From positions 1,178,001-1,242,000 of the forward strand of contig OZ316896.1 of the NCBI GenBank assembly GCA_973895155.1: a stretch of DNA of 64,000 nucleotides. Reading direction: 5' to 3'. Positions 3,762-64,000 of the stretch are shown here, piece by piece. Below the pieces are notes generated by a model, which did no database searches, was not told the origin of the DNA, and saw only the letters and a program-made list of their open reading frames with translations. A program made the position numbers and the translations under genes. Position 1 is the stretch's first letter. The number at the start of each line of letters is the position of its first letter. Origin of the DNA: Marsupella aquatica (Eukaryota > Plantae > Marchantiophyta).

Positions 3762-3869
3762 GTACACATTATGCACATATAATATTTGGGCTAGCATAAT
3801 AATAATAATAATGCATAATTTGGGCTATACATAATAATAATGGCATTTGTAAATGTTATGTTTTGTAGA

Positions 3870-5403: not shown

Positions 5404-5430
5404 CCTGACTGAACATCCCTGGATCATAGT

Positions 5431-11624: not shown

Positions 11625-12183
11625 TAAACATCTTCTGCGGACAAAAACTTGCAGGAAGGGGCAAAATGCTAACAAGTTATGTGTTATCCTCTGACTTATG
11701 ATCCAACATCGTTGTGCTTTTTGCACAATCTTAATTTTGTTGCATTTCTCAAGACCCCCATATGCAAATTGGCCCATTTTTGAGGAGCTTTGGGATGCTG
11801 GTGGAGCGATTGCATCCCTCATTGTTTGTGCCTTGTTTGGGACTCCTGCCCTTACATTTTTTCTACTCTGACCGTCTCAGCCTGGGCCCTACATGATTTA
11901 GTATTCTTTCCGAGATGGGCGCAAGCAAGGCCGGCAGGGGGATCCTATTGGTGGGGCTCTGTTTGCCATGGGACAATTTTGTGCACTCCGGGTCTCTTTG
12001 GCTGCAATTCCCGGATGCATGTTAGTTTCCGTCCATTGCTGATGATACCCATCTTGTGGCACAAACATCAGTTTTAGGTGATGCTTATATTCATTTTAAT
12101 TGTGAACCAGTTGACCCTAGTTACTCAACCTTTCTGTTCAGCCTTGCAAGTGTGGGGTTTGGTCTCTGCATCCCCTTCCCAAC

Positions 12184-29017: not shown

Positions 29018-30334
29018 ATCTCCCCCTTTATTTTGGTCTAGGGGAGGGTAAAGACTGCTACCAATATGATTGCTTAGCGGAAAGTTCTGGAAAGAAAAAC
29101 CAAACCGGTTTTACCATCTTTATATATGAGAGTAGACCAGAACTAAGTCGTAGCCTATACAAGGAATGAGCAAGAGCATATCTTAGTATCTACATAAATG
29201 TTAAATAATTAACCCTACTTGTGAGGCAATTGCAATACCTGCAACGCATCACGGTGTCTAGAAAAACTCTCCAAACGAATCACTTTGGTAAAAGCGTCAG
29301 CCGGGTTGAGTTTATCGTCAATCTTAACTAGCTCAAACATATTATCAAACATAGTCTACCTGATAAAATGGTACCTGAGATCAATGTGCTTCACTCTACT
29401 GTCCATCACCTAGTTCATAGCAAGGTGGAGCGCACTCTGACTATCACAATGGAGCTTCACATTCCCCTATGGCAATCTCATCTCAGTGATCATTCTATCC
29501 AACCAAATCGCTTCCTTTGCTGCTTCCGTTGATGCAACATACTCCGCTTCTGTAGTAGACTGAGCAATATACTTCTGCAAAGTAGACCTCCAACTTATGC
29601 ATCCACCGCCAAGTGTGAACACATAACCTATTGTTGACCTCCTCCAATCCAGATCCTGTGCATAGTCAGCATCTACATAGGCCATCAATGATCTAGCATT
29701 ATGAGCATGTGTATCGAATAATAGACCATGATCCACGGTACCCTTCAAGTACCAAATAATCCACTTCACTGCTTCCTAGTGTACCTTCCCTGGATTCGAC
29801 ATGTACTTGCTCACCTTGCCCATAGCCATGGCAAGATCAAGTCTAGTGCAAGTCCTCAAATACATGAGACTCCCCACTGTCTTGTCATAAGGAACCTTTG
29901 ACATCATTCCCTTCTCTGTCTCATCTGTAGGACAGAAAGTTGATGACAACTTGAAGTGTGGAGCCAACGGGGTACTCACTGGCTTACTATCCCCCATGTT
30001 GAACCTTGCAATTATTTTCCTCACATAACTGCGTTGTGTCAACCTAGCTTAAGACCAGCCTCCAAGTCCCTAGTGATCTCCATACCCAAAATCCTCTTAG
30101 TTGGCCCTAAGTACTTCATCTTAAAATCTATATTTAACAGTGTCCCCGACAGTGTCTTGAGCTTAACAATCTCAGACCTATCCTTGGCCGCAAGAAGCAT
30201 GTCATCCACATAAAGTACTAAAACAATGAATCCAAAGACAACATCCTTCACTTGTTTAAGATACTGACACACAAGGGTCAAACACACTCCTGTGAAAGCC
30301 TTGTGCACGAACCCAATCATCAAACCGCTTATTC

Positions 30335-30631
30335 CTCGGGGGTCTCATTATATGGGGACCTCCCCATCACCTGCGACGTTTTTAGGCCTCAGACCCCCTA
30401 AAATGTAAGAAATTTTTTATATTTTTTAACCCCTATGAAGTTGGAATATTCTTGGAATATTCTAAAAATTGGATTAAAAAGACCCTAATGTTCTTATAAG
30501 TCTCAAAATTGAATTTAAAAGACCCTATTGTTCTTCTACAAAAATTCTTAAGTCTTCCCTTAGAACCAATAAAATGACCCTATCCTTCGTCGCACGTGAT
30601 ATGCCATTTTTGTGGAAGTGAAACCCCCGAG
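30335..30631 (-). mobile_element. MITE (297 bp) inserted in Copia RT
   Basis: Perfect 8-bp TSD gcttattc (30327-30334 and 30632-30639). Ends ctcggggg...cccccgag. Removing it restores ...PRQWNKRFD. Reverse-complement homolog of 9968-10264. Confidence 0.92.
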
Positions 30632-30829
30632 GCTTATTCCACTGTCTTGGTGACTGCTTCAACCCGTACAAGGATCTCAGCAATCTGCAAACCAAATCCT
30701 CTTGCCCTCTCTTCACAAAACCTAGCAGTTGTCTTCCAAGGTGTCATAGAGAAAAGTTCCTTATGATAAGGCAATGGGGAGTCTCATGTATTTGATGACT
30801 TGCACTAGACCTGATACATATGAACAAAA

Positions 30830-35483: not shown

Positions 35484-36427
35484 GTCATGCTGGGAAAGGA
35501 AAAACACAAATTGCAAGAGGCACCTGCACTTTTTTTTATACCTTCAGGCCCAGCTATACTAGCACTATGGGGCCTGTGGAAATGCTCTTACCCTCCATCA
35601 CCAACACCAAAAAAAACATTCCCTGCATCCGACTTCTGGTCCTCTTTGTCAAACACGCCCGCCACTATTAAAAAAACATTCCCTGCATCGAAAATCTTCT
35701 GTTGTTTTTGTCATACACGTGAATCTGACTCCATATAGAACTATTTTTTCCCGCCTGAAAAACTACGGTATGGTGCCGATAAGTCACCTTCCTCATGATT
35801 ATCTCTGGGCCATTGTGGAGCGGAAGCCGGCCAGTAAGCGTGTGAGATTTGGCTGTTTTCAGCTTCCACAGTACGCGTACTCACATTTGTTTAGTCAACA
35901 CTCAAACGAACGATCCTCGTTGAGCAAGTCTCAGGTACAGTACTGTAGTGCTCTACATTCTACTACTGTAGAGAGTTCTAGAATTCCCTTGCCCCTTGGA
36001 ATTACTTCGAGGCTGTGCTTCCTTCTCATCAGCATTCCAACGCTCTTTCTTCCGGAATCCGCGGACCTTTATTCAGCTCGAACCCCTTCGTGCTCTCTAC
36101 TCTCTCTCACAATCTCCCATCTCTCACAATCTGTCCTCTCTTGCTCCTGCCTCTTGCTTCCCTGGGCGGTGACTCTAGCCCCCTCTCTCTCTCTCGGTTT
36201 CCGCAACCTGCTTCTAAATTGTTCTCGAATCAGAAGTCCTACTATAGTTTACCTGACGGTACCCACTGTCTCCCCATGTCTCACTTGAGTGGTTCCCGCA
36301 ACAAGCTTCTGAATCGCTCTTTAATCACGCTGTTCCATTAGGCATCGTAGTTAGCTTGTTGGTAAGAGCAGTTTCTGCATTCCTCGGGTTGACGGTTTGG
36401 TTTGCCACGAATTAGAGAGGTTCCGAG

Positions 36428-37192
36428 ATGGCGTTGCCGACCGTGACGGATTTGTTTTACAACGACAGGCAAGAGCCGGTGATGGTGGTTGGCCAGACAA
36501 GTGATCGCTCTCGATCGCAATATCGGAGAGGTTATCTCTCTCGACAGGACTCGCGCATCTTCAGGTCCTCGGCATCCCCCCCGCCGTCCAGGTCTCACCA
36601 TCACGCGTCCTCCTGGTTTGGGTTGCGAAGATCGTCGCAATCGCCACCCAGACACCACCGTTATCAATCCAATTACTCAGACTACAGGAGAGGTAAGTAT
36701 GGCAGATCTCCCGAGCGCCACGGCATAAGTTCGTGGTTTCGCAGGCGGAGCTCGCATTCTCCACCGTCTAGTTATCACGACTATACATCGCACACGAAGT
36801 ACAGAGAGGATTACACCGGCTACCCCCTCGAGTCTGGCTACACTGCTAAGGACGGTTACAGAGGCCGCTATGGGTATGACGATTACTACGGTCGGCCTGG
36901 GTATTCCTCGGACATGTATCACGGAGAGCTTACAGCCGTGGTTCCTCGAACGTATCAGTCGACTTATGGAGGCGCTTTTAACAAAGACTACTTGGAGACT
37001 GTGAAGCTGAAGGTTCCGTTGTGCTGTGAAGCATGCGAAGAAAGGATTACGAATCACATGCTGGCTCTTGAAGGTGTGGAGTCCGTTACATGTGATCAGG
37101 TGAAGCAGAAGGTGACTGTTAGAGGGACTGCCACGCCTTCGGAGGTTTTGAGGCAAGGCAGAGAATGTTTCAAGCACACGAGATTTTGGTAG
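36428..37192 (+). CDS. Heavy-metal-associated (HMA) domain protein with a long R/S/H/Y-rich N-terminus
   Basis: C-terminal VKLKVPLCCEACEERI...LEGVESVTCD..KQKVTVRG...EVL is an HMA domain with CxxC. Intronless 254 aa. No C-terminal CaaX motif. Pyrimidine-rich upstream leader. Confidence 0.88.
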   Translation: MALPTVTDLFYNDRQEPVMVVGQTSDRSRSQYRRGYLSRQDSRIFRSSASPPPSRSHHHASSWFGLRRSSQSPPRHHRYQSNYSDYRRGKYGRSPERHGISSWFRRRSSHSPPSSYHDYTSHTKYREDYTGYPLESGYTAKDGYRGRYGYDDYYGRPGYSSDMYHGELTAVVPRTYQSTYGGAFNKDYLETVKLKVPLCCEACEERITNHMLALEGVESVTCDQVKQKVTVRGTATPSEVLRQGRECFKHTRFW

Positions 37193-40130: not shown

Positions 40131-40664
40131 GATCTCTCGTTAATTCAAATTACAGATTGCAGAGAAGAAGTGGCAACTTTTTCATGAACTGAAAGTCAAA
40201 GGTTTAGTGATCAGGAATTGATCTCTCCTTAATTCAAATTACAGATTGCGGAGAAGAAGTAGCCACTTCTTCATGAACTGAAAGTCAAAGGTTTAGTGAT
40301 CAGGAATTGATCTCTCCTTAATTCAAATTACAGATTGCAGAGAAGAAGTAGCCACTTCTTCATGAACTGAAAGTCAAAGGTTTAGTGATCAGGAATTGAT
40401 CTCTCCTTAATTCGAATTACAGATTGCAGAGAAGAAGTAGCCACTTCTTCATGAACTGAAAGTCAAAGGTTTAGTGATCAGGAATTGATCTCTCCTTAAT
40501 TCGAATTACAGATTGCAGAGAAGAAGTAGCCACTTCTTCATGAACTGAAAGTCAAAGGTTTAGTGATCAGGAATTGATCTCTCCTTAATTCGAATTACAG
40601 ATTGCAGAGAAGAAGTAGCCACTTCTTCATGAACTGAAAGTCAAAGGTTTAGTGATCAGGAATT
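40131..40664. repeat. Tandem array, 6 x 89 bp
   Basis: Units start at 40131, 40220, 40309, 40398, 40487 and 40576 and are near-identical. Units 2-6 contain the perfect hairpin gaagaagt-agcc-acttcttc; unit 1 has a variant. Confidence 0.95.
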
Positions 40665-42384
40665 GAGTGGTGCTCTATTTAGAAGTGCTCGAAAAACGTT
40701 ACCATCACATGAGTATTCAAGATTATTAAATTAGCATATACCGCTACCTACCCAGTTTCAGGCAATTTGAGGGGAACTAGCGTTTTGCAAAAAGCAAGCC
40801 AACCTCAGAATGACCAGCACAAGGACCGCCCGATTCTCACGACGGTTTTCGGTTTCTTATGTTAAAAAGACAGTAGAACTCAATGGGCTTAAATGCTCAC
40901 CAACGGATGACCGCCTAATTGATCTTCAAATCAAGCTTCACGTTTCGAGACATTTAGATAAAGCAGTCCCGGCTGTTCATCTACGGCCAATGCAGCCACG
41001 CACTATTGGGGACATTTACATGATGGACCCCAAATTGAACCGTGTTATTTTATGGACGCCACAAGTGATCCAGACAATTGATAGACCTTAAATCAACCTA
41101 CCCAAAATCTCGCCCCCAAAACCTCGCCACAAGTGATCCGACAGTTGATAGACTTTAAATTAACGTACCCGAAACCTCAAGTGATTCAGATAGTTGATAG
41201 ACCTTAAACCAACGTATCCAATACCTCATGGGTTGGTTGGGGAGAAAACTTTGAATTGGGTGTTCATCAAGTAATGGGATTGGTTGGAGACAAAACTTTA
41301 AATTTGGGTGATCATCAAGTAAGTGTCTCCGCACTGTTGCAATCGACTGAAAGCTCGTCCACCAACTAGAATCAAGGTTTAAGAATGAAACAGAATTTTG
41401 TAATTGCAGGGTGCAAGTAAAGTATTTCCTCGTTGGTAGGAAAGACACTTCGAAGCAAGCTCAATTTATTACTGGTGGCCAACAGACGTTTCATATGCAT
41501 TTGTCTTGCTTCAATCCGAGATGACCGTAACGCTGACTGTCTGCTTGCCAGAAGATGGCTAACTTGGTAGGTAAGGAATTACACAAAATTGGTCATGCCG
41601 TTCATCGCCTTGCACAGCAGATGCCAGGCAGCTCAAGCGCACGAAGACCTTAATGAGGCCTATGACTAGAGGACTATGAGAAGTACCACACGTCTGCCAC
41701 GTCATGCGTGTCGATAACGGTGGACGCATTCTGCCCCCAAAAAATAAAATTTGCCCTTGCTGGAAGCTGCGAAGAGATTTCGCAAGTTCCCAAGGAGTCA
41801 AAGTAGAAACGACGACAGCCAATTTCTATATAAAAAATCAAAAAGCAGCAAAGAAGAAAAAGTTCCCATTGCCCCGAGGAAGGAAAGACCAGGTTTGACC
41901 AATCGTGCCCTTAGCCATAGTAATGGATTCCAGTAAAGATTCCACCAATACCTGACCAGTCGTTGAAATTGCCGAAGAAAATTTTCACACTTTTTCTAGT
42001 TGCAGACTTTACTTGTGATACAAACTTACGGGCATCCATCGGTACCAGAAAATTTGTAACAACAGAGATTCTGATTGTGAATAAGTTCCTTGAGAAGAAG
42101 ATGGTGTACGTCAGCATGGGCATGGTCGTGCGTGGAAATGAGAATATCTTGGTGGGTGTGGGGCACTTTCCGGGATGTCTCTGCGTCAGGAAGCATTCAC
42201 TCTTGATCATTCTTGATCATTCTTGATCAGCGGAGCTTCGAGATTAGAATGTTTTTTTGAATGGATAAATATGAAATAGATGAACCTGAGGTCCGCGAGG
42301 AGCCAGTCATTCTGGCCGTGGGACTCGCTCGTCGGTCATGTTGGGTTGAAAGAACCTAATGGCTACACACATTTCAATGCAGTT

Positions 42385-46607: not shown

Positions 46608-48103
46608 ATGCCTGGGAGGTGACGAGGTTTTTTCGTGACAAGTTTTTCCAGCGTTCATTGTCGATGGTACATTCAGAGTTTCGTCGCATGAAACTTGATT
46701 GTGTGTGGCTGAGCGGATAGGTTAGTGAGAGGGCATTCTAACGGTGGTTAGAGCTTGCTGATCGGTATCCGTGGTGCGGAGGAATTGAAGTTTGCGTCGT
46801 TCAGGGTTTATTCGTGTTCGACGGTATTTCGGGGGAGAAACCAGAGATTGTTTCTTCAACGGTGTGAGCTGTGCGATGCGCGGGGCGTCGCATGTGATAG
46901 TTCAAGTTGAAGGTTGGAGCGTGCTGGTCATTTTGGTATCTAGTTTGCTGACGTTTGCGAAACGAGTGCGTCGTGACGAGTGAAGGAGGCGTTCTGGTTT
47001 TTTGACAAGCTATGGTGCTTGTTTTTCCCTGAACCGGATTACTCGTCGTGACGCTTGACTCGGAGGAAGAAACGCGAAGTGCTGAGGCTCAACGGAGAGA
47101 TTGTGGTGAGACGGTCATTTTGAGTCCGGGATTGGCACTTGACGCGGAGTGAAGGCGACGCAACTGAAGTTCTTTCTCTGGTGGAGCTTCAGACGTGCCG
47201 GTGCAATTCAGAAACATTTTCATGTCGGCGGTCATCACTTTTCTCATTGGAAACCAAAGCGGAGGCGGCTGAGGTTTGTAACACGGCCTTTGTGTCATTT
47301 TGGGCACATTTTTAAGGTTAGTTTAGGGCATTTTTTGCCCCAATACGGTCCCAATACCCGACAAACCAGGTTCGCCATACGCCCCGGCGCGCACACCGGC
47401 CTCCCACACCCCTTTAAGCGCAAAAACGTGCTTTTTTGGGCCCAAATACGGCCAAAAACGCCCATATACGACCCAAAAACGCGAAAATATGCGCATTTTG
47501 ACCCCTGTAAACCCGTTTTTTTTCACGTTTTTTGCTGTTTATACGCGATTCTGGCCGCAAATACGCGCACCTTTGCCAGGGGCTTTAAGACCCCTTTAGA
47601 GTGTGTTTTTCTGAATTTTTTTCTCTCCTCCTCCTCATTGGTTGTGCCTCATCTCGGGCCCTGTGACCCTCCATTTTAACCGCTCCAACAGAGGGAACGG
47701 CCCCCTGTGAGCCCTGTTGGACTGTGCGGGAATATTCCCAAAAAAACAGAGAGCTGGTTTTCGGCCATCACACAAAGATTCCGTCCGCCGCACGGTAACT
47801 TTTTTGGTTCTTTTTTGGTGAGGATGTTGCCACTGGAGTTAGCAATGCGGCGCACCCATCACATCGTGATTCCGACGACAGGTTGTACTTGGTATTTCGG
47901 TTATTCTCCGAGGTGGTCAAAACGGGGGAGTTTCCCAAGGTTTTACCCACCCCGACCAAAATTTGAATAACTTTTCCGTCGAATTTCGATTTTGATTTCG
48001 GATTTCAGTATTGGACTCCTAGCTTTGTGGGCTATGCGGCGGTGTTGAGTTTTGAGTTTTATGAGAAGTTTCGAAAAAAGACGTTTTTTCGTGATTGTTT
48101 CAT

Positions 48104-51100
48104 ATGAGTGACTCGGAGGATACTAGAAGAATTGGCGTCGGTGGAGCTTCAGGATCGCGACGGTCAGACGGAGAGTCTGAGGAGGAGCTGCTACCGTTTG
48201 AGGAGGAACTTATAACACCGGTACGATCACCGGTGCGGCGTGCAGTGGAGGAAGCTGTGTTACTACCAGAGCTGTCGGTAGTAGGGAAGAAGAGGAAGAT
48301 GGCTAGATTTGGAGGAGTGAAGTTTGAGGTGGAGAAGTACGATGGTCGTACTGATTACTTGCTCTGGGAGAAGCAAGTGAAAGGTGTTCTACGGGCTATG
48401 GGCTTAGCTCATCTGCTTTCATCGCGAGAGCAGTATGATGGAGAGGAGGAGATTTCAGTGAGGCAATGGAGACAGGAGCAGGTGATTGCTGTCAATGCAG
48501 TGATGCTATATCTCAAGCCGCACATCATCAAGCAGTTGGATGATTATACGGATTGCGCATCACTGTTCAAGGCTCTAAGAGAGAAGTACTACCGGGTAGA
48601 TGCGTCAGACCGGTTATACAAGAAGTCTCTCTTGATGAGCCTCAGGCTCAAGGAAGGGAGCAAGATGCAGGATCACCTAGATGAGTTTGACAGTCTAGCG
48701 GTTGATCTGTCAAACCTGGGAAAAGGAGTTGAAGATGAGGATAAGGCCTTGCTTCTGCTAAGCTCCTTACCGCCGTCATATCAGGGCTTGAAATAGGTGC
48801 TCTTGTACAGAGATCTGAAGTCCATTTCGTATAATGAGGTGGTGAGCTCTTTACTGTCTGATGATGCTCAAAAGAAGCTGGGTCAATCACAGACAGCATC
48901 TTCTTCTGGCACTGCGCTCAATGTGAACAGGGGCAGAGCAACGCAGTGCACGAATGGGCAGAACAAGTTTAGATCAACATCACGGGGGAGATCTAAATCC
49001 AGAGGAAAATCGCAAGAGAGGAAGCCTCTTGCATGTTGGAATTGTGGCAAGACAGGCCACATGAAAAGGAATTGTCGAGTAAAGGTCCCTACTGCCTCTG
49101 CTAATGCAGCATCGAGCTCGCATGAGGTAGATTTACTCGATGATGATGACATATTGTGATGTCAAGGTTATGCTCTCAACGTAGTGTCAAATCCAGGTAG
49201 TGATGACTGGATTCTAGATAGTGCATGTACTTTTCACATTTTCTCTAGAAGAGATTATTTCAGTTCTTACATGGTTTCCAACGGGTCAGTGTTGATGGGA
49301 AATGGAATCCCATGTCAAGTTGTTGGACTTGGATCTGTACGATTTCAGATGTTTGATGGTGCTGTGAGAACATTGAGGAATGTGAGACATATTCCCAGCA
49401 TGATGAAAAATCTCATTTCACTTGGAGTTTTAGAGGCAAATGGCCATCAGTGGAGTTCTGCTAATGGTGTCCTTCAGGTTTCAACTGGTACTAAAGTTGT
49501 ATTGAAGGGAAACAGACATTGCAATCTATACGTTATGGAGGGCAGTGTAGTCTATGATGAAGCCAATGTAACCTTATCTCATGAGGAGACGGCCCGGCTG
49601 TGGCACTTCCGTTAGGGCCACATGAGTGAAAAAGGTTTGGTTATTCTTCAAAAGAAAGGATTACTTTCTAATTTGCAATCTTGTAAGTTGGAATTTTGTG
49701 AGCACTATGTGCTAGGGAAGCAGCACAAGAAACCCTTCGGAGTTGGAACTCACACCAGCAAGGAGGTACTTGAGTATGTACATAGTGATGTGTGGGGTCC
49801 CGCCCCTACTCCCTCACATTCAGGACGGTTATACTATGTCACGTTCATTGACGATTACTCAATGTATGTGTGGATATACTTTCTACACTATAAATCTGAT
49901 GTTTTTGCCACTTTTAAGGAGTGGAAAGCCCAAGTTGAAAATCAGACTGGTAATAAGGTGAGATATCTTCGATCGGATAACGGCGGTGAATACAGTTCCG
50001 GTGAATTTGGAATGTATTGTAAGGAGCAGTGGATTACCCGCCATCTCACAACAAGCTATACTCCTCAGCAGAATGGTGTTTCTGAGAGACTCAACCGAAC
50101 ACTATTGGACCGCTCGAGGAGTATGTTGAGTCAATCATGCTTACCACATGAGTTTTGGGCTGAAGCTGTCAACACTACAGCTTATTTGGTAAATTTTTCT
50201 CCATCCAGTTCTATTGGATTCAAGACGCCATTTGAAATGAGGTACGGGCGTCCAGCAGATTACTCACATCTGAGGATTTTTGGATGTGATGCTTATGTAC
50301 TTACACCTTCCCAGCTTCGATCCAAGCTGGACTCCAAGTTGAAGAAGTGCATTTTCCTTGGTTATCAGAAAGGTGTGAAGGGTTATAGGTTATGGGATCC
50401 AGTAACCTGTAAGCTAATTGTCAGTAGAGATGTGTCCTTTAATGAATCCAGATCATCAAAGGAGGGGGAGAGTTCTCAGGACTCCCATACTGACAAGGGG
50501 AAATCTCCCATCCCGGACCGGGTTGAGGGGGAGATTAGTCATGATGCAGTTCATGACAGGAGAGATGGAGAAGCTCCGGGCTTGGAGCTGATTCTTGTGA
50601 TGGAACAAGAGGAGAAAATTGTTGTTGGGGTACCTCAAATTCAACCAGCAGCAACAACAGATCAGCCTAAGTCATCTACTAGAAGAACTTCCAGTCGTTC
50701 TACTAGAGCTCCTACCAGGTATGGTCAATGGGCAGACTCATCTAAGCTAGATGATATTGACATTGCACCTGATGAAGATGATATGGCTTTGATCTTGGAA
50801 GAAGGAGAGCCTTCTTCGTATAGTGAGGCTTGTGCTTCAGAGCAGAAGCATGAGTGGAATGCAGCAATGCAGAGGGAGTTGCAATCTTTGAGTGACTAGG
50901 CCCAACTGGGCCCTAGCGATGGGCAAGGTTAGCAGATTCATGTCAAATCCCGGGAAGGTACATTGGGAAGCTGTGAAGTGGATTCTCAGGTATCTGAAGG
51001 GAACACAGGACTATGGATTACTATTTGATAACAGATCAGATAGAACGTTAGTTGGCTATGTAGATTCTGACTATGGAGGCTGTCTGGATACAAGGAGGTC

Positions 51101-51468
51101 TACAACTGGGTTTGTATACACTCTTGGAGGAGGATGTATCAGTTGGAAATCTACCTTGCAGAAGTGCATTTCTCAGTCTACTACAGAAGTAGAGTATGTT
51201 GTAGCAGCAGAAGCTGCAAAGGAAGCAATTTGGTTGGATAAGTTGATCGCGGAGATGGGTTTAGAGCATGGAAAAATGACTCTAAACTGTGATAGTCAGA
51301 GTGCTCTTCACTTGGCTGCTAACCAGGTGATGGATAGCAGGGTGAAGCACATTGATATCAGGTACCATTTTATCAGGCAAGCAGTGTCTGATAAAACTTT
51401 TGAGCTAGTCAAGATTGATGGAAAGCTCAATCCCGCTGATGCCTTTACCAAAGTGATTCCTTTGGAAT
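48104..51468 (+). pseudogene. Copia gag-pol pseudogene
   Basis: VEKYDG..DY.LW (gag), CWNCGKTGHMKRNC knuckle, WILDSAC protease, LWHFR*GH, integrase HSDVWGP/RSDNGGE/QNGVSER, GYRLWD, RNaseH YVDSDY/KHIDIRYH/NPADAFTK. Stops at 48794, 49157 and 49613. Jumps from ELQSL to TRP at about 50894. Confidence 0.92.
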
Positions 51469-51936
51469 CACTATATTCATTAAAACTATACTTTTAAAAG
51501 TCCATAAGATGAACCCTAAAGTTATTTTTTTTCAGGCCAAATTTCTATTAAAGCATTCCCAAAAGCTAATTTTTTTCAGCCCAAATATACACTTTTGAAC
51601 GCCCAAAATTTTGTTTTTTTCACCCAAATGTTTAATAATAACTTAAATCATATATTCTAATTAATTTAAAAATTAGAGTAAATTTAATTTAGTCCAAAAA
51701 TCAGAGGCCAATACCACTCAGACCATCTATAAATTAAAAAATATAGATGGTCATAAATCAAGGGTCAAAATGAGATTGACCCACTATATAATTATTAAAT
51801 TGTCCAGTCCAGTGAGAGAGCCTCACACTAAGCATATATCCTAATTATTTACTTTATCCTACATGTTCAAAACATATCCTTTCAAGACATAATATGAATG
51901 TACAATTCAGGGTAGGCACTAGAGCAACCCTATCTC

Positions 51937-52992
51937 CTAATGATCAAGACAAAACTCATTTGAACAAGAAAGTCTGCTTCCAGATTTATCATAGCGGATG
52001 TCACGGTTGCAAGTATCTCTCGCATGGTGGTTCTTAAACTTATTGGTGAGATCCCTAGTTCTGAGAACTTTCCAAATAAAATGCCTTCTATTTTGTGTAT
52101 GAGGACCAGAATAGTTGTCTCCAAGTATTACGTTTGCAGTTTCTTCGATCTCATCCGTGGTCCACGTCTCCAGTGGTGGGTAATGCTGCACCTCATTCTT
52201 TCCGTCCCAAGGAATCTCTTCAGGAGTCACATCCAAGATGGTTCCAAACTCCCTATGGATACAACGACAATCTCCCCACTTCTGTTCCAAAAGAGCATAG
52301 ATGGCAGCATGATCCTCCTTGCTTGTTAATAAATTGAAAACAGACCACTTTGGATTGTTGACAGTGATATAATGTTGAACGCAGTAAGCCTTTCTCAATT
52401 TGCAAAGATACGGCCATAATATCTCGGGCAAAAAAGTGTCATTTGAAGCTGTGTGGGTAAATGGATTTGGAAACAATCCATTCACGTCATAATTCAAAAA
52501 TGCCTTCAATGGAGAATCATCAATAAGAACTGTATTAGAAGCATCATATTTTTCTGGAAAACGGTCCCAAATGGTTTGCAAATTCTTCAGAAGTAAATTG
52601 GCCTTCCCATCTGTTATATCTGGCCTTTGGATGCAACTATCAAAGGTATCTTCTTGAGTAAAGACAAACTTGAACTTCTGTCGCTCCTCCTCAGTGAAAA
52701 TCAACTCCATTAAGTCCATTGTTTTTGGCCTCCTTGCACAGGTCCAAATTGCGATGTCAAAAACCATGAAAGCTGCATATAGAAATTCGTGGAGGTATGG
52801 GCGCTCCACATACATGAAATTAAACCCTCCACGTCTCCCCCAGTGCACACCACGTAAACTTGTCTGATTTCGCCATGGTCCTGAGCTTCTGGTCTTAATG
52901 CAATCCCAACAAATCTTGTTAAGGTCAAGAACCAAGAGCTTTCGCCGGATCGGAGAGTGTAGTATTGGAGTGAATTCTGGAAACATTAACAT
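51937..52992 (-). CDS. FCP1/NIF-family HAD phosphatase-like protein (351 aa, intronless)
   Basis: KLLVLDLN, RPYLHEFL, DIAIWT, FVFTQEDT, KNLQTIW, SNTVLIDDSPLK are NIF-domain motifs, with a DxN variant of the DxDxT motif. Confidence 0.82.
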   Translation of the reverse strand: MLMFPEFTPILHSPIRRKLLVLDLNKICWDCIKTRSSGPWRNQTSLRGVHWGRRGGFNFMYVERPYLHEFLYAAFMVFDIAIWTCARRPKTMDLMELIFTEEERQKFKFVFTQEDTFDSCIQRPDITDGKANLLLKNLQTIWDRFPEKYDASNTVLIDDSPLKAFLNYDVNGLFPNPFTHTASNDTFLPEILWPYLCKLRKAYCVQHYITVNNPKWSVFNLLTSKEDHAAIYALLEQKWGDCRCIHREFGTILDVTPEEIPWDGKNEVQHYPPLETWTTDEIEETANVILGDNYSGPHTQNRRHFIWKVLRTRDLTNKFKNHHARDTCNRDIRYDKSGSRLSCSNEFCLDH

Positions 52993-53330
52993 AAGCCCTT
53001 AGTCAATGCGACTCAAAGTTTAAACAATTACTACGGAGGAAAATTCTCAAAATTTGAAATCAAACAAACTTTGTTATAGCATTTGAAGTAGAGAGGAACG
53101 ACCCTGGGGCGACCCTCCTAGAAAAACATTAATTACATTCAATTGCCATTTTTTAGATCCAAAGTATACTTGGGTCAAACCCTTCCTCCACAGCAACGCT
53201 TTCCGAGGGAATGCCAACAAAATCCTTTGAGGAAGGAGATTCTACGACGGAACTTTGGTCTGTAAAAAAATATATTATTACAAAGATAAAGCTTAGATTG
53301 TTATTAAAATACCAAGAACCAAAGAAAGGG

Positions 53331-56300
53331 CTAATAATTTCCAATGCTAAAATGCCCAAATTCATCTATTGTTTGATCACCTAGAACACTCTGTATCTCG
53401 GAATTGATACCACTGGGAAGTTGCTCTTCAAAGGATGGGGGTGCAAAAACTGGGCTCAGTCTCAAGTTCAGTTTTTTGTAATCTGATTTTGCCATTATCT
53501 TTGGAGCATTGTCTAGTGATTCTATCATTCCAACCTTTGGTCCATTTCTCCATATAAAATGAGTTGCAGGACGGACTGTTTTCATATATCCAGTCCTGCC
53601 GATCTCGGATCCAGAATTTAGTGAAAATGATAATACTACGGGGCTTCCTGTAGAAGCACTTGTAAAAACCAATTTAGTCTCTGATGAGCAATATAGAGGA
53701 GACAGGGGAGGATTTGAAGCACCTGCCTTCTCTTCTTCATTTGCAGCGGTCTCAAGTACTTGACGATCATCCTCCTTTGCAAGCACAATGTCTGACATTT
53801 CTCCCAATTCTACTGCGTCAATATTGCCTAGACCATCTGCGGTTGCCTTCCAATGTGCGTCCGATGTGGACGATGTAAGATCTGGGTCCGATTGGTGCAT
53901 CCAATTCTCTACACCGGCAAAGGGATTTCTTGGTGGGTCGCCATCAGGTCGACCCACAACATCAGCCAACCCCACACCAAAGTAGGGAATACCTACCACT
54001 TGTGTTCCACGTTCATCCAAATTTCGGGTGACCCTGTCGTCTGTGTCGTGACCCAATTCTCCTTCCTCAATATCATCTTCGCCCTGGTCTACGCCTTCTT
54101 TGGCACCAACATGCTCGGAAACCCCATCGCGGGCTCTACCAAATTTGGAACCGCCCATCCGGTCACTCATTATGGAAGGAACTTTCTCGCAAAGAACCCT
54201 TCCATATGCCGAAGTGAAATCATATTCATCCTCAGTGTCTGAATACGCAAAGCATTCTCTGAAACACAACAATGACACCTTCATAACCTGTCCTCCCGAG
54301 AAAAAGTCAAGTATAGTCTCCCCTTCAGCCGAAAAAAATTCAATAATACTCTGCAGCATACATTTTGGCTTAGCGTGAATATTCACAAAGCCACCTCTAC
54401 TTCCCACCATCTCAAACATGGGAGCCTTTTGTAAGAAATCTCCAATGTGAAATGCCAAAGTTGACTCAGTCTCTGTCTCCTTACTTGTCTTACTCTTATT
54501 CTTATCTCGCTTCTCCGTCTTGTCTTCCACTTGGAAATCAGGGTCGATCGCCGAATTGTAAGAAAATTGGCAATTAAATCCAGGCCTGAACACTTGCTTC
54601 CAATCAAATTTCTCCTCAGTGGTGATTCCTGCAAAGATTATCTCCTCCATACCACAACTGAAAAGTAAGCCCTCTGGAACTGGTGTATCACTCCGTCGAT
54701 AGCTCCCGTAGTCGACGTGGATGTCCATTCCCTTTTCATGTTGCAATTTCCTAAGGGCACTCAAAATGTTTGCAGCAAGTGGCCCCGGATGCACAGTCAT
54801 GACAACAACAATTGTTGGATTTCTTGGAAGATCCACAATGTATTGCAGTAATGCAATAATTTCAGCATCGGTCCAAACATGTTGTCGGAGCCTACTGAAG
54901 TCAACAATGGCAAGAGGACACAAAGGCGAAGGCTCTTGTAGCATTTCCGGCACGGTCGTCTTCATCAAATTCTCACTAAAAAATGTCAAGAAAGGCTCCG
55001 TGCGAGAACGACCAATCCCACCAAATTCTTTACAATACAACCCATCTAGTCTGACCATCAGACTTTGTGGGAAACTCTCCTTGACCACATTCTTCTTCAA
55101 TGAATTGTTGAGGTAAACCTCACCCGCTGCTCTCCTCAATTTTGTCATCTCAAGCTCAGATTTCAAGGAAGGCAACAATATCACCAGAGACTCCCAAGAT
55201 GTGCCAACAGGAAACTTCTCACGATACTTTTCCACGAAATAGCCAATAATGACTGTTCTCAATTTGGACATTATCTTGATTGTAAGGGCCAAGTCTCCCA
55301 TTGCGACAAGCTCTGATTTGTTGGTGATATCCTTCTTCAGCAAGACACGCTCCTCTTCAACGTCCTTCAAGATCTCAATTATCTGTTTGCTACTAATCTC
55401 TCCTTCAAAGCATCGAAAGGTACCGGGAGTGATCAATTTTTGGGGTCTTGGCCCTCCATACCCACCAGCCCCGTCTTGGAGCTTCCCACTCAACCATTTT
55501 TCACACACGTTCCGCCATAATTCAAAGAGCTCATCTTCGGCAAAAAGTAACCAATAAATGCTCTTTAGGCTTGACTTCCCCATTGTAACCTTTGCCAGGG
55601 CAAACCAATCCTGCATATCCAATGGACTTGACATTAGTTTCAGGGTACAATGCATATGTTAGAAAATTTATACCTATGTTTGAAACAGGCTAAGCCGCCT
55701 CGCCCCAAGGGCGTGGCGAACCTCTACATCTAACCGCAATTGACTGAAACAGAACTAGGGAATTATTCTTAGAGAGACTAGTCTAGGTTGCCTCGCCCTG
55801 AGGGCGAGGCAACATTTGCTTTAATCTTCTAACCAAGGAAAACAAGAAAAGGCAGCCTCGCCCTTGGGGCGAGGCAAACCTCTACCATTGACAATCTTTA
55901 AACAAAGGGGATCAAGAATAGTTTGCGTTGCTCCAATATGTACCTGATAGTTTTTCCTGTCTGTATTTTGATTGGTCCCAATCCCTGGACGCGGCGGTTT
56001 CCCGCACTCCTCAAACTGCCTTCGTGCATGAACAATAGTCTCTAAAAAACAAGACTTAAATTGCATAGTATCATTGACAGCATTCGATAAACTTGAATGC
56101 TCAACCAAAATTGTCTTCGGAGTGAGGTCAGATAGGATCCTTGCTTTCCTATACTTTAGTTTGTTGGCAAGATCTGTCAGCTTGGCGTCAGTCTCGGCCC
56201 ACCCTTGGATCCATTGGGCAGCTCTTGCAGAATGCTGGCCACTGATGGCAAGGAATTGGATCTCATGCTTCTTCACACCAATCAAAAACTCTTTCCTATC

Positions 56301-58471
56301 CTGAAGTGTGTTGTCATAATGAAGCAACTGTTTAGTGCTCTCGCGATACGGAATCAAATCAGCAACTTGTGGTTCCTGTCCAGGGTTTTTCATCATAGAC
56401 TTTGATATCTCCATTGCATGCGAAAGATTGAACATTCGATATACAAAAACGGCCGATGGCGGATTAATACTTTTTACAGGAATATCAAAAACTTCGCGGA
56501 TGCCAAAAGTATAATACTGCTCAATATTACGCAAAACCTCTTGGCCTTTGAGCACATCATCTTCTTTGGGTCCTTCTATCGGACACATATCATCCTCTGG
56601 ATGCAAGACAAAGTTTGAAGTTGACCCTGACATTGGTTTTGATTTCGCAACCTTTGCCTTCTTTGTCTACTTTTTTTGGGGGCCCTCATCATCTTCATTT
56701 TTTTAGCCATCTTCTTACGGCGTGAACTCCCAGATTGTTTCTCTTGTTGAACAACCGGCTCTTGAAGCTTTTGTTTCTTCTCTGTCTTTGATTGCGCACT
56801 TCTTTCCACTGTCTTCTTTCTCTCCTTTGCCTTATGCTTTGCTTCTTTTTTCTTCATCTCTGAAATCCACGTCCGGCACGCGGCCTCTTGAAACTCTGGA
56901 CAAAAAATGAAACTCTTGTCGATTGCTTGCTCGTATGAAAAATGTGCCTTATCAATCATCCTTTGAACTATCCAAGTAGACGGAGGGTCCACACTGTCCG
57001 CATTGTCATGCATGTGCTTCTTTACATAGAGAAATCCAAACACTAGGTCAACTCCACTTATTTGAGAACGCGTCTTCTCAAACATCTGATCAATTGTTAC
57101 TCCATCTGGGAAGAATCCCATATTAGCTACGCTGATCTCCAATCGAGCCATCCACTCAACATTCAGTAAAGTCGAGTAGAGTTTTATTGGCACTAGAAGT
57201 CTCATCCACTGAGATTTCTCATTGGACTCAACAATAATCGTTGCATTGCAGTTGTTGTCCGTGTTCACAAGGACGACTGGACCTAGAGTAACAATTGTCT
57301 TGCGGTCATTCAATTGACTTGTGAGGCCCTTGAAACAAATCAAGAGACTGCCTTCCGCCGACACCCCAACTTCTAGTGCCCATCTAAATCCTGGAGTATC
57401 TTGGTCAGGGAAAACAAAGTCCTTGATATCCTCGTCCATAATATTTAACTCCGGCTTCTCAAGATTTTTTCCTGGTAAGAAACATTGAAAACAAAATGGT
57501 CAGCATCATATTTTTAACATTGACATGTGGAAAACTTTCAAGGTGCCTCGCCCTTGGGGCGAGGCGACAAATAGAAGATTGCAAAATCTTCTTTGCTCCT
57601 AGTGCAATTAGCCCTGCCACCTCATCCAAGCAATCAAACATTATTTAGGAATGCAGACGACATCGCCTCGCCCCAAGGGCGAGGCAACTTCTAGGAAAGC
57701 AAACAACATTTAGGAATGCAGACAACATCACCTCGCCCCAAGGGCGAGGCAACTTCTGGAAAGCAGACAACATTTAGGAATGCAGAGGACATCGCCTCGC
57801 CCCAAGGGCGAGGCAAATTCTGGAAAGCAGACAACATTTAGGAATGCAGAGGACATCGCCTCGCCCCAAGGGCGAGGCAACTTCTGGGAAAGCAGACAAC
57901 ATTTAGGAATGTAGAGGACATCGCCTCGCCCCAAGGGCGAGGCAACTTCTGGGAATGCAAACAACATTTAGGAATGCAGATAACATCGCCTCGCCCCAAG
58001 GGCGAGGCAACTTCTGGGAATGCAGACTACATTTGAGGAATGCAAACGACATCGCCTCGCCCCAAGAGCGAGGCAAAAAATAGAATATAGCTAAAGATCC
58101 TTTATTAATGTAAGATACAAGGTCCAATACGCCTTCGGAGCAACAAGAAATCTAGAATGAAGTAGACGTTGCCTCGACCTTGGGGCGAGGCGACTGCAAA
58201 GGAATATAGAAATTTTCCTAATAAGAAGTTTGAAATCCAAATTAAAGTAAAGTTGCCTCGCCCTTAGGGCGAGGCAAGAAGTTGAAGCAGGTGGTGCCTT
58301 ACGTGGAAAAGTTAACTGGGCTTTCTTTGACGCCTCCAACGCATTGTTAACAAATTTTTGGACATCCGGGTCTTCAGGGTCATATTCATACAGAGAGTTA
58401 TAATTGAAGTTCAATGACTCTTGAGAACTGGCGGAGGTGGTGGAAGCTTCAGAACTGGAGGAAGTAGACAT
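53331..58471 (-). pseudogene. Spliced gene for a ParB-like plus degenerate N6/N4 DNA-methyltransferase-fold protein; exons about 58471-58303, 57471-55944 and 55610-53331
   Basis: Phase-compatible GT-AG introns at 57472-58302 (FP c|ga KN) and 55611-55943 (NYQ|DWF). ParB-like: VFDIPVKSINPP...YR.FN..HA..I...M...FLAISGQHSARAA (about 56200-56500). MTase-like: PLAIVDF...HAKPKCMLQSIIEFFSAEGETILDFFSGG...RECFAYSD..EY (about 54220-54920). Frameshift plus TAG near 56670-56705. Confidence 0.62.
57637..58075. repeat. Intronic tandem array, 7 x 64-66 bp, each with palindrome GCCTCGCCC-CAA-GGGCGAGGC
   Basis: Cores start at 57665, 57730, 57794, 57858, 57923, 57988 and 58054. Additional solo cores at 55697, 55790, 55855, 57545, 58171 and 58255. 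Confidence 0.95.
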
Positions 58472-59636
58472 TGTAAGGGGCGAGTGAGATTTAAGATGAC
58501 ACATGGCAGCAATGGAGAATGCCACAGGCTGCAAGAGGGCACTAACAGGCAAACAATGATCGAGGGAGCGACCCAAAAGGGAAGGGAGCAAGGCGGAAAT
58601 AAAAGCCTTAGAGCGAGGCGGAAAACAAATCCCAAGAGCGAGGCAAAAACAAAAGCCCTAGAGCGAGGCAAGAGGGAGGCAAGGAGTGAGGAGACGAGAG
58701 AGGAGGCAAGAGGGAGGCAAGGAAATGAGGCCTCAAGCGCAAGGCCTGCCTTCCTATACCCCCTGCAAGCGAGGAGTCCAAGGAGGCAAGGATCTGAGAG
58801 GGTACGGAGGCATCAATGCGCGCCAATGATGGAGACCCTCCTCGGTGCATGTGATCGTGAGTCACCGATGGTGTGACCACTCACGACCACTCGCGACTCA
58901 CCTACCAATTTTAAACTTTCGAGCTGTCAGCGGTGTGTGCTCGCAACTCACCTATCACTCGACGTGAGTGATTGGCTGACACCCTATCCGATGTCTACTT
59001 GTGTGCTGGGTGCGTGCCTCATCCACCCGTGCCCGATCTGTTGGTGTCCACTCGTGTGCTGGGTAATGTGTGGGCTTTTTGCCTCTCAAACTGAGTATAG
59101 ACCTCCCACAATCCATTTTTTGGTTCATTGTCATTTAGACAGTGATTGGTACGATCATTGACTCTCCTCTGTCCGAGTGCCTTGTTTAGGTCCGCATGGT
59201 TGAATGCAAGGTTTAGTAAGGGCACTAGTGAGCACTGTGGTGCTAAGAGTTACAATGCTGGCATCCAAGGTACCCATTTAACTTGTACAAGGGTGGACAG
59301 AGATATATTGCGGAGCAGGTTAGTGATTTTATTTATTTATCTTAGAAGTACTAGCTCAACTACATCTAATTCAATACCTTTAAGCCAAACCTAGATTAAG
59401 ATTTACACATTAGGTTCTAGATCATATATTTTACTCATTCTAGACCTTTATCCACAGTCTAGCATGTGTAGAACTTACTGTACCCCTTTATGTGATTACT
59501 AACATAGTTTCTAGAAGTGGGTCGGAATTATTTCGTGCCGACCTGACTATGTCATCTTAACTAGCATTTTAAACTGGTATATAAAAGCATAAGCAAGATA
59601 GTTTCACAAATAGTTTTGACATAATTTCAACTTAAT

Positions 59637-59965
59637 AGTTGGAGTAGGGTCGAAATAATTCCGACCCAACTTATCAATGTTTAGTCAATTAAATCATTTT
59701 AAGACATATTGTTGGAGGAGGGTCGAAATAATTCCGACCCGACTTGTAAATGTTTAGTCAATTCAATCATTTTAAGACATATTGTTGGAGGAGGGTCGAA
59801 ATAATTCTGACCCAACTTGTAAATGTTTAGTCAATTCAATCATTTCAAGACATATTGTTGGAGGAGGGTCGAAATAATTCCGACCCGACTTGTAAATGTT
59901 TAGTCAATTCAATCATTTCAAGACATAATGTTGGAGGAGGGTCGAAATAATTCCGACCCGACTTG
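59637..59965. repeat. Tandem array, about 4.5 x 73 bp, each with near-palindrome GGGTCGAAA-TAA-TTCCGACCC
   Basis: Cores start at 59647, 59720, 59793, 59866 and 59939. A partial inverted copy lies at about 59519. Confidence 0.93.
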
Positions 59966-60091
59966 AATGTATTTAGGGTTTTGAGTGATTTTACAATATT
60001 TTTTGGAGGAGAGTCCAGATTTTGAAACATGATTGTAACATGGGGAACTTAACAATTTCTAACTTTATTTGAATACAGATAGTCCGCTATC

Positions 60092-63000
60092 ATGATCAAT
60101 TTTACACGAGGGGATGAAGTGTCATTGGTGATCGATGGATTTGAAACGGCAATTGGGATAGTTCAAAAGGTTGACCCCCAGGATACTATACAGAACATTT
60201 GTCTAGGGGACAATCGAATTGGGGTATTGATCGAAAAGTGTTTTGATGGATCGCATCAACTTCCATTTCCTTCGCCCAAATTTTCTACATTGGCTGAGGC
60301 AATTGACTCCTGCGTGATTTGGGATTGTGCATTGGCATACTTGAGGTCATCAACTCAGCGCCGAAGAATCAATGTCGATGATTTCTCTTTGGCTGGAGAT
60401 GCTGGAAATGATAAATCCAAAATTGATGCAAGGGTTGAAGAGGAAGTGTTCAAGGAAGGAGATGAAGTTCAGATGTTCATTTTTGATCAGTTGGTTGCAA
60501 ATGGAGTCGTTTTCAAGACAAATCCGATGGATATTTGTCATACTGAAACACTCGGGGTTGGTCGCATCAGTATAAGAATATCTGATATTGTTAAGGGAAA
60601 TCAAAAATTACCATACTCGCACCCTGGAGCTGATACAATAGAAGAGGCCTTGCATACCTGGGTTATCTGGGATGTTGCGCATGTTTCTAGAAAGGGGACT
60701 CTACGAGATTTTGGCGTGTTTGGTAGTTCAAATATTTTCAATGATCTTCCATTAAAAGATTTTACACTACGTTCCAACTGGATGGCGGAGGAGGTTGATT
60801 TGTATGATGCTTCTCGTTGTCGAAAGGTTGCAACAGGTGTTATCACGGTCCCATTTGAAATAGGTGCCGTTGACGATGAACTTCTTGGTGCAGATCATGT
60901 TGGTGTTGCTGTTGTGAATATCAATGAACCCGGATTATTTCCAAATATCCGTGTTGGTACCCCTGGCTTGGTGAGGTGGGAAATCAAATCCCTTCTATTG
61001 ATTTCGTCTCAAAGGTTTCTTGGGGATATCCTTGAGGAAGTTTCAGAGAAGTGGATGGAGTCGGGTCGAACTAAGGGCGATCCGGATTCGGATGGTGATG
61101 GTAAACCTACAAAAAGACCATACAATTTCATTAGGAGGACAAAAGTTGATCTTGAGGAGAGGAAGAAAAGGCATTTGGAGTCGAGGGCACTTTTGAAAAT
61201 TAACGAGGAGTCCATTGATTCCATCCAAAGAGAAGGTTGTTGCAAGCTGAAGTGTTGCTTGAACATGCCCAGGGAGGACTTAGAGGCAATGAGGAGGGAA
61301 TACCATGGAATGTCAAGTGACAACAAAACAAGTCACATCTTTAGTCTCTTTGGGTGTAGAGAGGAGCAAGTCAAGAGAAAGGGATTTTTTGTTCTAAAGG
61401 GACGTGTGGTTTGTAAAGATGCATTTATTAAAATGCATGGGTTCAGTACAACAAAGTACTATGACTACAAAAATCAATACGAAGCTGGTTGCACAATTGG
61501 TTTCCATGGAAATCAGGGACAACGGAAGACACGATCAAGCACTTTGCACGCTCGCGCCTTGTTGGAGTCCATTTTAATCCAAAATGGGGAACCAATGCCA
61601 CATCTTCCCTATGGTGGGTCCAACGGCACTGACACTATTGAATATCGGCTCCCATCTTGTTTTACTAAGAAGGAGATTTTCCAAGAGGTGTTTACCAAGA
61701 TGAAATTAGATGGGTTTGCTAAGGTTACTGAAGTTACTATGTACAACATCTGGAAAAACTCATTTGATAATTTTGACTTTCACAAGGGAAGTGCATTTGC
61801 CAAGTGCACATTTTGCACTGAGTTCAAAGATCAATTGATGCGGGAGAAGAGAAAAAAAGAGCGTGCAGAGATTGAAGAGAAAAGAACGCGACATCTTCGT
61901 GAACAAATGTCAAGAAGATATGTTTACTATGCTCATAGGGTTCTTGCAAAGAAGGATCCTCAAAACTATCTTTGCATTATTCACGATAAGATGGATCAAG
62001 CCAAGACTTGGATCCCCAGGTTGGTCCCCACTCCAAAATCCCTCTCTGGTAGTGGTCAGCCTTTGCCTATTGCTCTTACTGGGATGTTCACCCATGGAAG
62101 AGATCCTGGAGTGTATGCACATTTCAGTTTAACTGGACTTTGGCTTGGAGATGCAGACTTTACCGTGACATCTTTGGCCAAATGCCTCCGAGATTTGGAA
62201 GATTACACAGGAGACAAAACTGGAGACCTTCTTGAGGGATTGAATTAGAATGCAACTAGGCCAATATTTCAGTCCCTTCTAGACTTTGAAGCATTTCTGG
62301 CCGGTTACTTGGAACCCAAAAATGTTTCAATTGTTTGATTTCAAGGCATTGAAGATGGTCAGGAGACTAAAAAGTCAAGCACAGTGGATGTTGGTTCTAA
62401 GGATGATCCTGAGACTACTAGGGGCTCTTTCAAGCCCTTACCAAGGCACCTAATGTTGCAGATGGACAATTCAGGGAAAGATAACAAAAATCAATATGTG
62501 ATGGCATTTTGCACTGAGCTTGTTAGCAGGGGGTGTTTGAAACTGTGCAAATGTCATTCCTCATGGTTGGCCACACCCATGAAGACGTGGATGCATTATT
62601 TTCTCAAGTATCCAAACAGGTCAGATACAAAGAGGTTGCTACCCTCTTGGGGTTGATGGCTGAGGTTTGGGAGTGTGAAAGCATTCATCCTGTACCACGA
62701 TTGATTCAAGAGGTTGCATCTTACAAGGAGTATTTGAAAACGTTCCAGGTGAAAGAGATAGAAGGTCACTCAAGACCAGTGGCATTTATTTTCTCCATGA
62801 GGGATAATGTGCCAGTGTATCAATATAAAGCACATGTCAAGCAACCTTGGCTTCCGGCAATGGGGAGGTCCATTTGGAGAACTGATCCCATCACAAATGC
62901 GCTCATTTTACCGGAAGGCCAACCATTTGCAAAACCTATATCTGGGGATGTACAAAAGAAGGCTGGAGAAATCATCCCATTCCTTAATCGCTATATTGAT

Positions 63001-63807
63001 TTCTTGAAGAAAAGTTGTAAGGATGAGACCTCTGCAGCATATAAAGAGAGATTTCCTCTAGTCAAATATTGGGAGAATCTTGTGCAAGCACTGTCCGAGG
63101 AACTTACAATAGAAGGGGAGGGGGAAAGACATTTGCCATTGACAACTGATTTTTGGCCAAAGACTAACCATGGCACAGGTTACAAGATGATTTTGGGGAC
63201 ATCTCAGCCGTCAAGTGAACCTTCTCAAAATCCAGAGATGATGGACCTTCAAAATGAGTACATGGAAGAGATGGAAGATCAAGCTGCACCCTTTGTTGGT
63301 GCACGACAAGAGCGAGAACCTGCACGTTGGATTCCTCTACAAGATATTCAAGAAGGTCACTTTGTATTTTTACGTCCAGAGGATGAATGAGAACAGGAAA
63401 ATGGCAAAGGGCGTTTCTGGTTGGTTCGAGCTTTGGGTGGTGTGGATCCAAACCATGAGGTTCCCTCAACAGATTTGCAACATATTGAAGGGTCTTCTTC
63501 AACGTCTGTTGAGAGCATTCCTCTTAGGAATGCTCCTATATTCCAAGTACAATGGTGGAGGCCTAAACATGGTAAGCATGATGCAAAGGATGATGTTCGA
63601 TATGAACGTTGCTTTCAAACCACTAAGACTTGGGAGCTGGATCCTGGGTTTGACAATGTTACTCAAAGTTGGCAGTTTGCAAATTCTGCAATGTATGGGT
63701 TTAAGTCAGGTGCTAAAGAACAAAATATTATGGATAGAGGTTTGACAATTCCTAAGAATGTTTTGAAAACTCTCAAAATTTACATGGAAGGTATAATTGA
63801 TGAGTAG
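60092..63807 (+). pseudogene. Sola-like DDD transposase with three N-terminal Tnp1/En/Spm-like repeats; disrupted
   Basis: Three repeats of GDEV.L....A.G.V...P......LG..RI.V.I....LP.P....TL.EA....VIWD. Then CCKLKCC, VCKDAF..HG, HGN, AKCTFC..H, IIHDKMDQAKT, LQMDNSGKDNKN, FLMVGHTHEDVDALFS. C-terminal FWLVRA...QVQWWRP. Stops at 62246 and 63388; frameshifts at about 62330 and 62533. Confidence 0.75.
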
Positions 63808-64000
63808 ATTGATAGAACTCGTAGGTTACAAGTCTCCACTCAAATGACTTGTGATTAAGAGGGTCGAGTTGATTTCCATGCGTTGGTCTAAAGTGAGAGA
63901 ACAAGACAATCAAATTAATACTCTATGATCTCTCAAAGCTATTGAATGGACTTTCTTATAATTATTATTTTATTTGTCTTAGTATATTTTAATTCTAGAA

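Follow-up and report, generated by a model that had tools for sequence, protein, structure and literature searches.

A probably transposon-borne liverwort gene joins a ParB/Srx-like fold to a methyltransferase fold that lacks its canonical catalytic motif

Architecture of the gene

The 64,000-nucleotide stretch of Marsupella aquatica DNA analysed here (the window; contig OZ316896.1, positions 1,178,001 to 1,242,000) carries, at 58471-53331 on its minus strand, a gene whose three exons are joined by two GT-AG introns in compatible phases. Once one missing base near 56697-56699 is allowed, the gene encodes a protein of 1325 amino acids (aa), in which structural models place a ParB/Srx fold in the N-terminal half and a beta-class amino-methyltransferase fold in the C-terminal half. 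It lies head-to-head with a DUF7869 transposase-like gene, and an exon for a NIF/FCP1-like phosphatase domain follows downstream. The two fold assignments and the identification of the gene as a transposon accessory gene are, taken jointly, proposed with high confidence.

Exon 1 (58471-58303, 169 nucleotides (nt); Ser-rich, 56 codons) and intron 1 (58302-57472, 831 nt, phase 1) are predicted from splice signals and phase alone, namely an ATG, a GT donor and a fitting frame. They are followed by exon 2 (57471-55944, 1528 nt), intron 2 (55943-55611, 333 nt, phase 0) and exon 3 (55610-53331, 2280 nt). This structure bears out a preliminary description of the locus, which had proposed three exons, phase-compatible introns and about 1300 residues. 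Eight of nine open reading frames (ORFs) homologous to exon 2 end at the position of the intron 2 donor; in a relative, L002, this site is occupied by an intron of 109 nt; and ParB-type and methyltransferase motifs occur in one chain in 12 of the 179 proteins compared (11 Riccia gene models and ORF P0128). We therefore conclude that intron 2 is real. In P0128, which is uninterrupted, the two motifs are 533 aa apart, as compared to 535 aa in the spliced gene here. The 12 one-chain proteins also rule out the alternative, raised with the preliminary description, that the exons belong to separate genes. Two contigs of public run X1 match exon 3 and then part from it at the intron 2 acceptor (55616), which suggests that another subfamily exists whose intron differs. 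No Rfam family was detected in 51000-64000.

This copy carries two lesions within 56667-56699 of the minus strand: the frameshift near 56697-56699 and an in-frame TAG at 56669-56667. The preliminary description had corrected both, and comparison with four public runs justifies that choice. The base missing here is present in runs X1, X3 and X4, and the TAG is a sense codon in all covering contigs of the same three runs; contigs of X5 do not reach the TAG site. Together, these comparisons indicate a real intron-containing gene that is broken in this copy.

The methyltransferase-fold half

The C-terminal half (54150-55010, minus strand) contains a motif IV region reading AIVDFSR, a motif X with a conserved lysine, and a motif I reading DFFSGG. 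By sequence, the Pfam match to PF01555 falls below that family's cut-off (E 0.005), and a profile built from 110 relatives reaches M.RsrI (E 1e-9). The structure prediction is confident (predicted local distance difference test (pLDDT) 91). Foldseek with this model returns M.PvuII and CcrM (E 3e-7), and in a structure search of 48,161 chains the top 11 are all beta-class DNA amino-methyltransferases (Z 14.5-17.6), followed by MT-A70 proteins and, from Z 5.4, by unrelated folds. The alignment to CcrM extends over 219 residues (Z 17.6, root-mean-square deviation (rmsd) 3.9), and the model has the permuted Rossmann arrangement in which motif IV precedes motifs X, I and II. Taken in aggregate, the modelling identifies this half as a beta-class amino-methyltransferase fold, in agreement with the N6A/N4C assignment of the preliminary description.

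The catalytic motif of this fold is lost. From the strand order of the model, we infer that D237 is the motif IV aspartate. It is kept in 51 of 53 relatives (41 of 43 when rows more than 80% alike are removed), and PP[YFW] follows it in none of the 53. The three residues after D237 vary freely, giving 21 different four-letter motifs in the 53 rows, and a (D/N/S)PP(Y/F/W) motif is absent throughout the 160 proteins compared. The loss of the DPPY/SPPY site, noted in the preliminary description from the sequence AIVDFS, is thus a family trait, and the absence of PP[YFW] from all 53 relatives rules out degeneracy as damage to this copy. The remaining motifs are uneven. Motif I residues are kept in 56-58 of 60 rows and the motif X lysine (K414) in 63 of 64. 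Motif I, on the other hand, lacks one residue, and none of 57 rows has an acidic residue at the position aligned with motif II, although 24 of the 57 have one at an adjacent position.

With PP[YFW] lost, motif I short and the motif II site non-acidic, canonical DNA methylase activity appears unlikely for this protein family. Since motifs I and X are near-invariant, a retained cofactor pocket is possible. The inactivity suggested in the preliminary description is accordingly kept as the probable state of the domain. A different explanation is that the domain is an active enzyme that uses a non-canonical site to methylate DNA, RNA or protein. Strong conservation of D237, motif I, the motif X lysine and the whole fold across deep subfamilies, as if the cofactor pocket were in use, would fit such an enzyme, and 4mC (N4-methylcytosine) or 6mA (N6-methyladenine) production is predicted for a comparable Ectocarpus protein in its authors' description (PMC12477816). 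This explanation would have to accommodate the free variation after D237, the short motif I and the non-acidic motif II site; in CcrM, moreover, the Asp and Pro of DPPY are described as contacting the target amine (PMC10406627). Activity of this kind is considered quite improbable.

The ParB-fold half and the helical region

The putative ParB/Srx-fold domain (55944-56624, minus strand), with ISGQHS in the position of the GxxR motif, is assigned from structure prediction (pLDDT 84.6) and motif counts. With this model, the eight best Foldseek rows are Noc, ParB and PadC, none of them reaching E 0.001. The nine best of the 48,161 chains all belong to the ParB/Srx superfamily, and realignment to Myxococcus xanthus ParB gives Z 9.2 and rmsd 2.4 over 94 residues. 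The DndB family is matched weakly by 3 of 38 ParB-domain rows (best E 0.03), and an Atlas search with the domain gave uninformative matches. The models argue that the N-terminal half is a ParB/Srx fold, with a weaker match than the methyltransferase half.

The motif itself is nearly fixed: Q130 is present in 35 of 35 rows, and H131 and S132 in 34 of 34. The preliminary description had compared ISGQHSARAA with a ParB/Srx GxHR motif. The fold implied by this comparison is recovered; the motif reads GQHS, and the GxxR arginine is missing, being serine in 34 of 34 rows. Replacement of this arginine (Box II GxxR) is described as abolishing nucleoside triphosphate binding in the ParB-fold proteins tested (PMC12704722). 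Canonical switching by cytidine triphosphate (CTP) is therefore doubtful for this domain.

Two further regions complete the chain. The 5' part of exon 2 (56700-57471, minus strand) encodes an N-terminal domain and basic linker conserved in P0114-P0122, for which no credible Pfam or NCBIfam match was found. The 5' part of exon 3 (55011-55610, minus strand) encodes about 200 residues of confidently predicted helices between the two folds, with no clear structural match; this is a candidate DNA-binding part.

The C-terminal domain and the phosphatase-like exon

Exon 3 ends in a conserved C-terminal domain of about 130 aa (53331-53722, minus strand) that terminates in DE[FY]G and gives no informative sequence match in the PDB. 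Its start coincides with a candidate alternative splice donor at 53722. From this donor, a GT-AG path leads through a candidate 90-nt exon (53170-53259, minus strand; open frame, phase 1 on both sides), which would join exon 3 to the NIF/FCP1-like phosphatase exon (51937-52976, minus strand; PF03031, E 9e-17). The path is open and phase-consistent, and predicts an isoform of 1571 aa. The three domains, ParB, methyltransferase and NIF, lie in one chain in three Riccia gene models, and of 16 proteins that have the C-terminal domain, a set that includes near-duplicates, 15 show [KQE]AG at the position of the 53722 donor. FCP1/SCP phosphatases have the catalytic motif DxDx(T/V). The corresponding residues do not match it, reading DLN here and DVE in five Riccia proteins.

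The gene family and its selection

Named relatives all come from Calypogeia fissa and Riccia sorocarpa, with many per genome and several deep subfamilies. In run X3, 2139 contigs match a segment of 2.3 kb. Scans of metagenomes, viruses and prokaryotes gave only L002 as a true relative, plus one phage type III Mod gene. The family tree includes 33 rows that cover at least 65% of the domain, shorter fragments being excluded.

The comparison covers 40 of 92 variant rows, 32 of which lie in exons. Between lineages, 15 differences are synonymous and 6 non-synonymous; among changes confined to this copy the numbers are 3 and 8 (p 0.027). These sequence comparisons indicate a family under selection and a copy that is decaying.

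Intron palindromes

A 21-bp palindrome, GCCTCGCCCnnnGGGCGAGGC, occurs 13 times in the gene: intron 1 contains 10 copies and intron 2 the other 3, and the rest of the 64 kb has none. In 100 shuffles no such palindrome arose, which rules out a chance origin. Seven of the 13 lie in one 65-bp tandem array in intron 1 (57643-58076); the remaining six have unrelated flanks and are found in both introns.

A 25-bp array that closely precedes the start codon (58586-58721) also contains three half-sites of the intron palindrome. A second palindrome, which is imperfect, occurs in a 73-bp tandem array at 59638-59965, upstream of the transposase-like gene. Elsewhere in the window, an 89-bp tandem array at 40131-40666 (6 copies, 98% alike) has a perfect palindrome with 8-bp arms in each copy.

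The palindromes could be unrelated to the protein, acting as RNA hairpins or transposase sites or representing a small repeat, and the protein could instead be a decoy for host silencing or transcription proteins. The seven arrayed copies are not independent, intron 2 of L002 contains no palindrome, and both folds and the NIF motif appear non-catalytic; inactive methyltransferase domains in DIRS1 retrotransposons, as described by Iyer et al. (PMC4738411), would provide a precedent. A decoy of this kind would leave aside the six palindromes that stand outside the array, with unrelated flanks, in both introns and with no copy elsewhere in the window. This explanation is judged very unlikely.

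CpG retention

Coding parts of the region from 51.9 to 61.2 kb have a CG/GC ratio of 0.74, as compared to 0.37 in the transposase core (p 0.002) and 0.47 in a neighbouring copia element (p 0.014). Other repeat-like stretches have a ratio of 0.38, and two host-like exons one of 1.14. This plateau bears on a further alternative, in which the palindrome-binding protein is a transposition helper or transcriptional regulator, like TnpA of CACTA elements or plasmid KorB, and host methylation is unaffected. The fold, motif and palindrome evidence fits such a protein equally well. The best structural matches of the ParB domain include KorB and Noc, and the second palindrome array is placed upstream of the transposase-like gene. 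A helper or regulator alone does not account for the CpG plateau, and the palindromes are internal rather than near a known element end. We regard this alternative as possible, though on the unlikely side.

Element context and neighbouring features

The DUF7869 gene (60083-63807, plus strand; PF25273, E 2e-22 and 5e-11) contains three candidate Asp motifs and is broken here by stops and a frameshift, two of the stops not being shared by other copies. DUF7869 is presumably the Sola1 transposase. Sola1 elements have a DDD transposase, terminal inverted repeats and a 4-bp, AWWT-biased target duplication. A candidate left end of the element lies at 51467-51480, where the RNase H frame of a copia element is cut off: the match to a second copia copy stops at 51466, and run X5 has a contig that starts at the next position, 51467. 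A CACTA-type end is an alternative reading of this junction. In run X1, the depth of long contigs is similar (421-515) across the NIF exon, the ParB-methyltransferase gene and the first part of the DUF7869 gene, a weak hint that the three form one unit. The transposon link at which the preliminary description could only guess is supported by the DUF7869 neighbour, by the truncation of the copia element and by the presence of relatives in many copies.

The truncated copia element is a long terminal repeat retrotransposon whose gag-pol frame, with stops, occupies 48095-51466 (plus strand); a second copia fragment lies at 29270-29832 (minus strand). Repeats resembling element ends, direct and inverted and mutually related, occur at 5226-5302, 9968-10264, 11365-11627 and 30332-30632, which suggests another DNA transposon family, and degraded transposon-like frames are present at about 2600-8900. 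Two host-like plant genes with intact CpG (17317-17841 and 36416-37189, plus strand) read by eye as DnaJ-domain and heavy-metal-associated domain proteins. A 248-aa frame at 20224-20967 (minus strand) contains a stretch that by eye is chromodomain-like.

Proposed mechanism

The reading that we prefer, and consider an even call, is that the gene belongs to a large plant DNA transposon, and that its protein, carrying a presumably dead methyltransferase fold, binds the intron palindromes and shields the element from silencing without methylating it. Palindrome binding and anti-silencing are suggested here by analogy and by the CpG plateau. If so, the process would likely involve: movement of the ParB-methyltransferase, NIF and DUF7869 genes as one element; recognition of the intron palindromes by the protein, probably as a dimer and through the helical middle region; and service of the methyltransferase fold, no longer catalytic, in DNA binding or as a scaffold, possibly one that still holds S-adenosylmethionine or S-adenosylhomocysteine. 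The spliced isoform would add a NIF phosphatase-like domain, which could engage RNA polymerase II. The net effect would be lower methylation and continued transcription, and the reduced host silencing would keep the divergent transposase promoter usable.

A more specific version, which we think unlikely, is a triple pseudo-enzyme, with the NIF fold added by alternative splicing, that loads at the intron palindromes as if at parS sites, spreads over about 9 kb and blocks host CG methylation. If true, this would be a bacterial centromere-clamp design reused for sequence-specific anti-silencing, independent of VANC proteins, and the CpG plateau would be its evolutionary footprint.

Several observations weigh against the shielding proposal and the assignments beneath it. 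The equation of D237 with motif IV depends on strand order in the model, the profile alignment having recovered motifs X to II only. For the ParB domain, the best Foldseek match is E 0.002 and the match to the superfamily in the 48,161-chain search is middling (Z no higher than 7.5); the domain is undetected by sequence in Pfam, NCBIfam and PHROGs, and its profile alignment to phage ParB domains is not significant (probability about 1%). No helix-turn-helix family or structure was matched in the helical region, which spans intron 2 and was not searched as a single folded unit. The intron of L002 that corresponds to a palindrome-bearing one here has a longest palindromic arm of 4. The CpG regions were delimited once the data had been inspected, with no control for amino-acid composition, so the step at 61.2 kb may stem from a different history of the transposase core. 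Of the 12 transitions private to this copy, 10 are in CG/CHG contexts, against an expectation of 28%; this copy was therefore not protected, and it is dead and decayed under methylation. Only one element end lies inside the window, the right end being beyond it, and no terminal repeat or target duplication is shown for that reason.

Comparison with known systems

The closest described architecture is that of Sola1-1_Ec32 of Ectocarpus, a giant DNA transposon with a 1104-aa ParB and N4/N6-methyltransferase gene on the strand opposite its transposase, the latter having a Physcomitrella Sola1 element as its best match (PMC12477816). The two systems share a ParB and methyltransferase combination in one protein of similar size, opposite a transposase or transposase-like gene. 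Compared by description only, the gene here differs in its land plant host, the family-wide loss of catalytic motifs, the NIF domain and the intronic palindromes. In Bostrychia, the Plavaka genes PAG2 and PAG3 are described as encoding PF01555 and ParB-like domains, with tandem inverted repeats by the ParB gene and self-binding proposed (bioRxiv 10.1101/2025.02.11.637652). Here too, PF01555-type and ParB-like domains are probably transposon cargo near repeats; Plavaka, as far as described, encodes the two domains in separate genes, in fusions with SET and 2-oxoglutarate oxygenase domains, and its transposase is of the EnSpm/Plavaka type.

Phage fusions of ParB_N and N6_N4_Mtase domains (the L004 ORF and L085-L093) share the domain order, ParB followed by beta-class methyltransferase, and align with the family profile from motif X to II (probability 94%, E 2e-7). 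They differ in length (about 420 aa), in an intact DPPY (14 of the 14 used), in a GHxR-type motif in most, and in having neither the helical middle region nor introns. Only about 67 columns are alignable with the phage or DN4MT enzymes. Marchantia DN4MT1 and rotifer N4CMT, representing the horizontally acquired enzymes that the preliminary description had brought in for comparison, are likewise beta-class folds of prokaryotic origin in a eukaryote. These are described as active host enzymes that keep (T)SPPY, with no ParB domain reported in the text available from these sources (bioRxiv 10.1101/2021.02.12.428880, PMC10406627). N4CMT is structurally no closer than the bacterial enzymes (Z 15.0 versus 14.5-17.6); a special kinship to N4CMT is rejected, and one to DN4MT1 is unsupported.

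The proposed mode of action resembles that of the VANC anti-silencing proteins of Arabidopsis VANDAL elements, described as recognising repeated motifs within introns and other non-coding stretches of the element that encodes them and as lowering methylation; for VANC21, binding to the introns of its element is described (PMC5735166). This is a functional analogy only, to a Mutator-type element, and no homology is expected. According to the Bostrychia preprint, no proteins other than VANC are known to bind the transposon that encodes them and to relieve its silencing (bioRxiv 10.1101/2025.02.11.637652). Iyer et al. describe eukaryotic clades derived from phage ParB loci, and few such enzymes in land plants (PMC4738411). 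The literature searched, with subscription journals and Repbase outside the search, yielded no land-plant member, catalytic-motif loss or NIF fusion.

From these comparisons, the ParB and methyltransferase architecture of transposon accessory genes is known in print, from algae; the land-plant family, the lost catalytic motifs and the phosphatase fusion are apparently new. By analogy, such accessory genes may form a second anti-silencing class, as proposed in algae. This proposal can be tested directly in a multicopy liverwort family that is near bryophytes amenable to genetics and for which a candidate binding site is defined. The family-wide loss of catalytic motifs suggests that these members, at least, are not writers of 4mC or 6mA, and this alters the mechanism to be expected.

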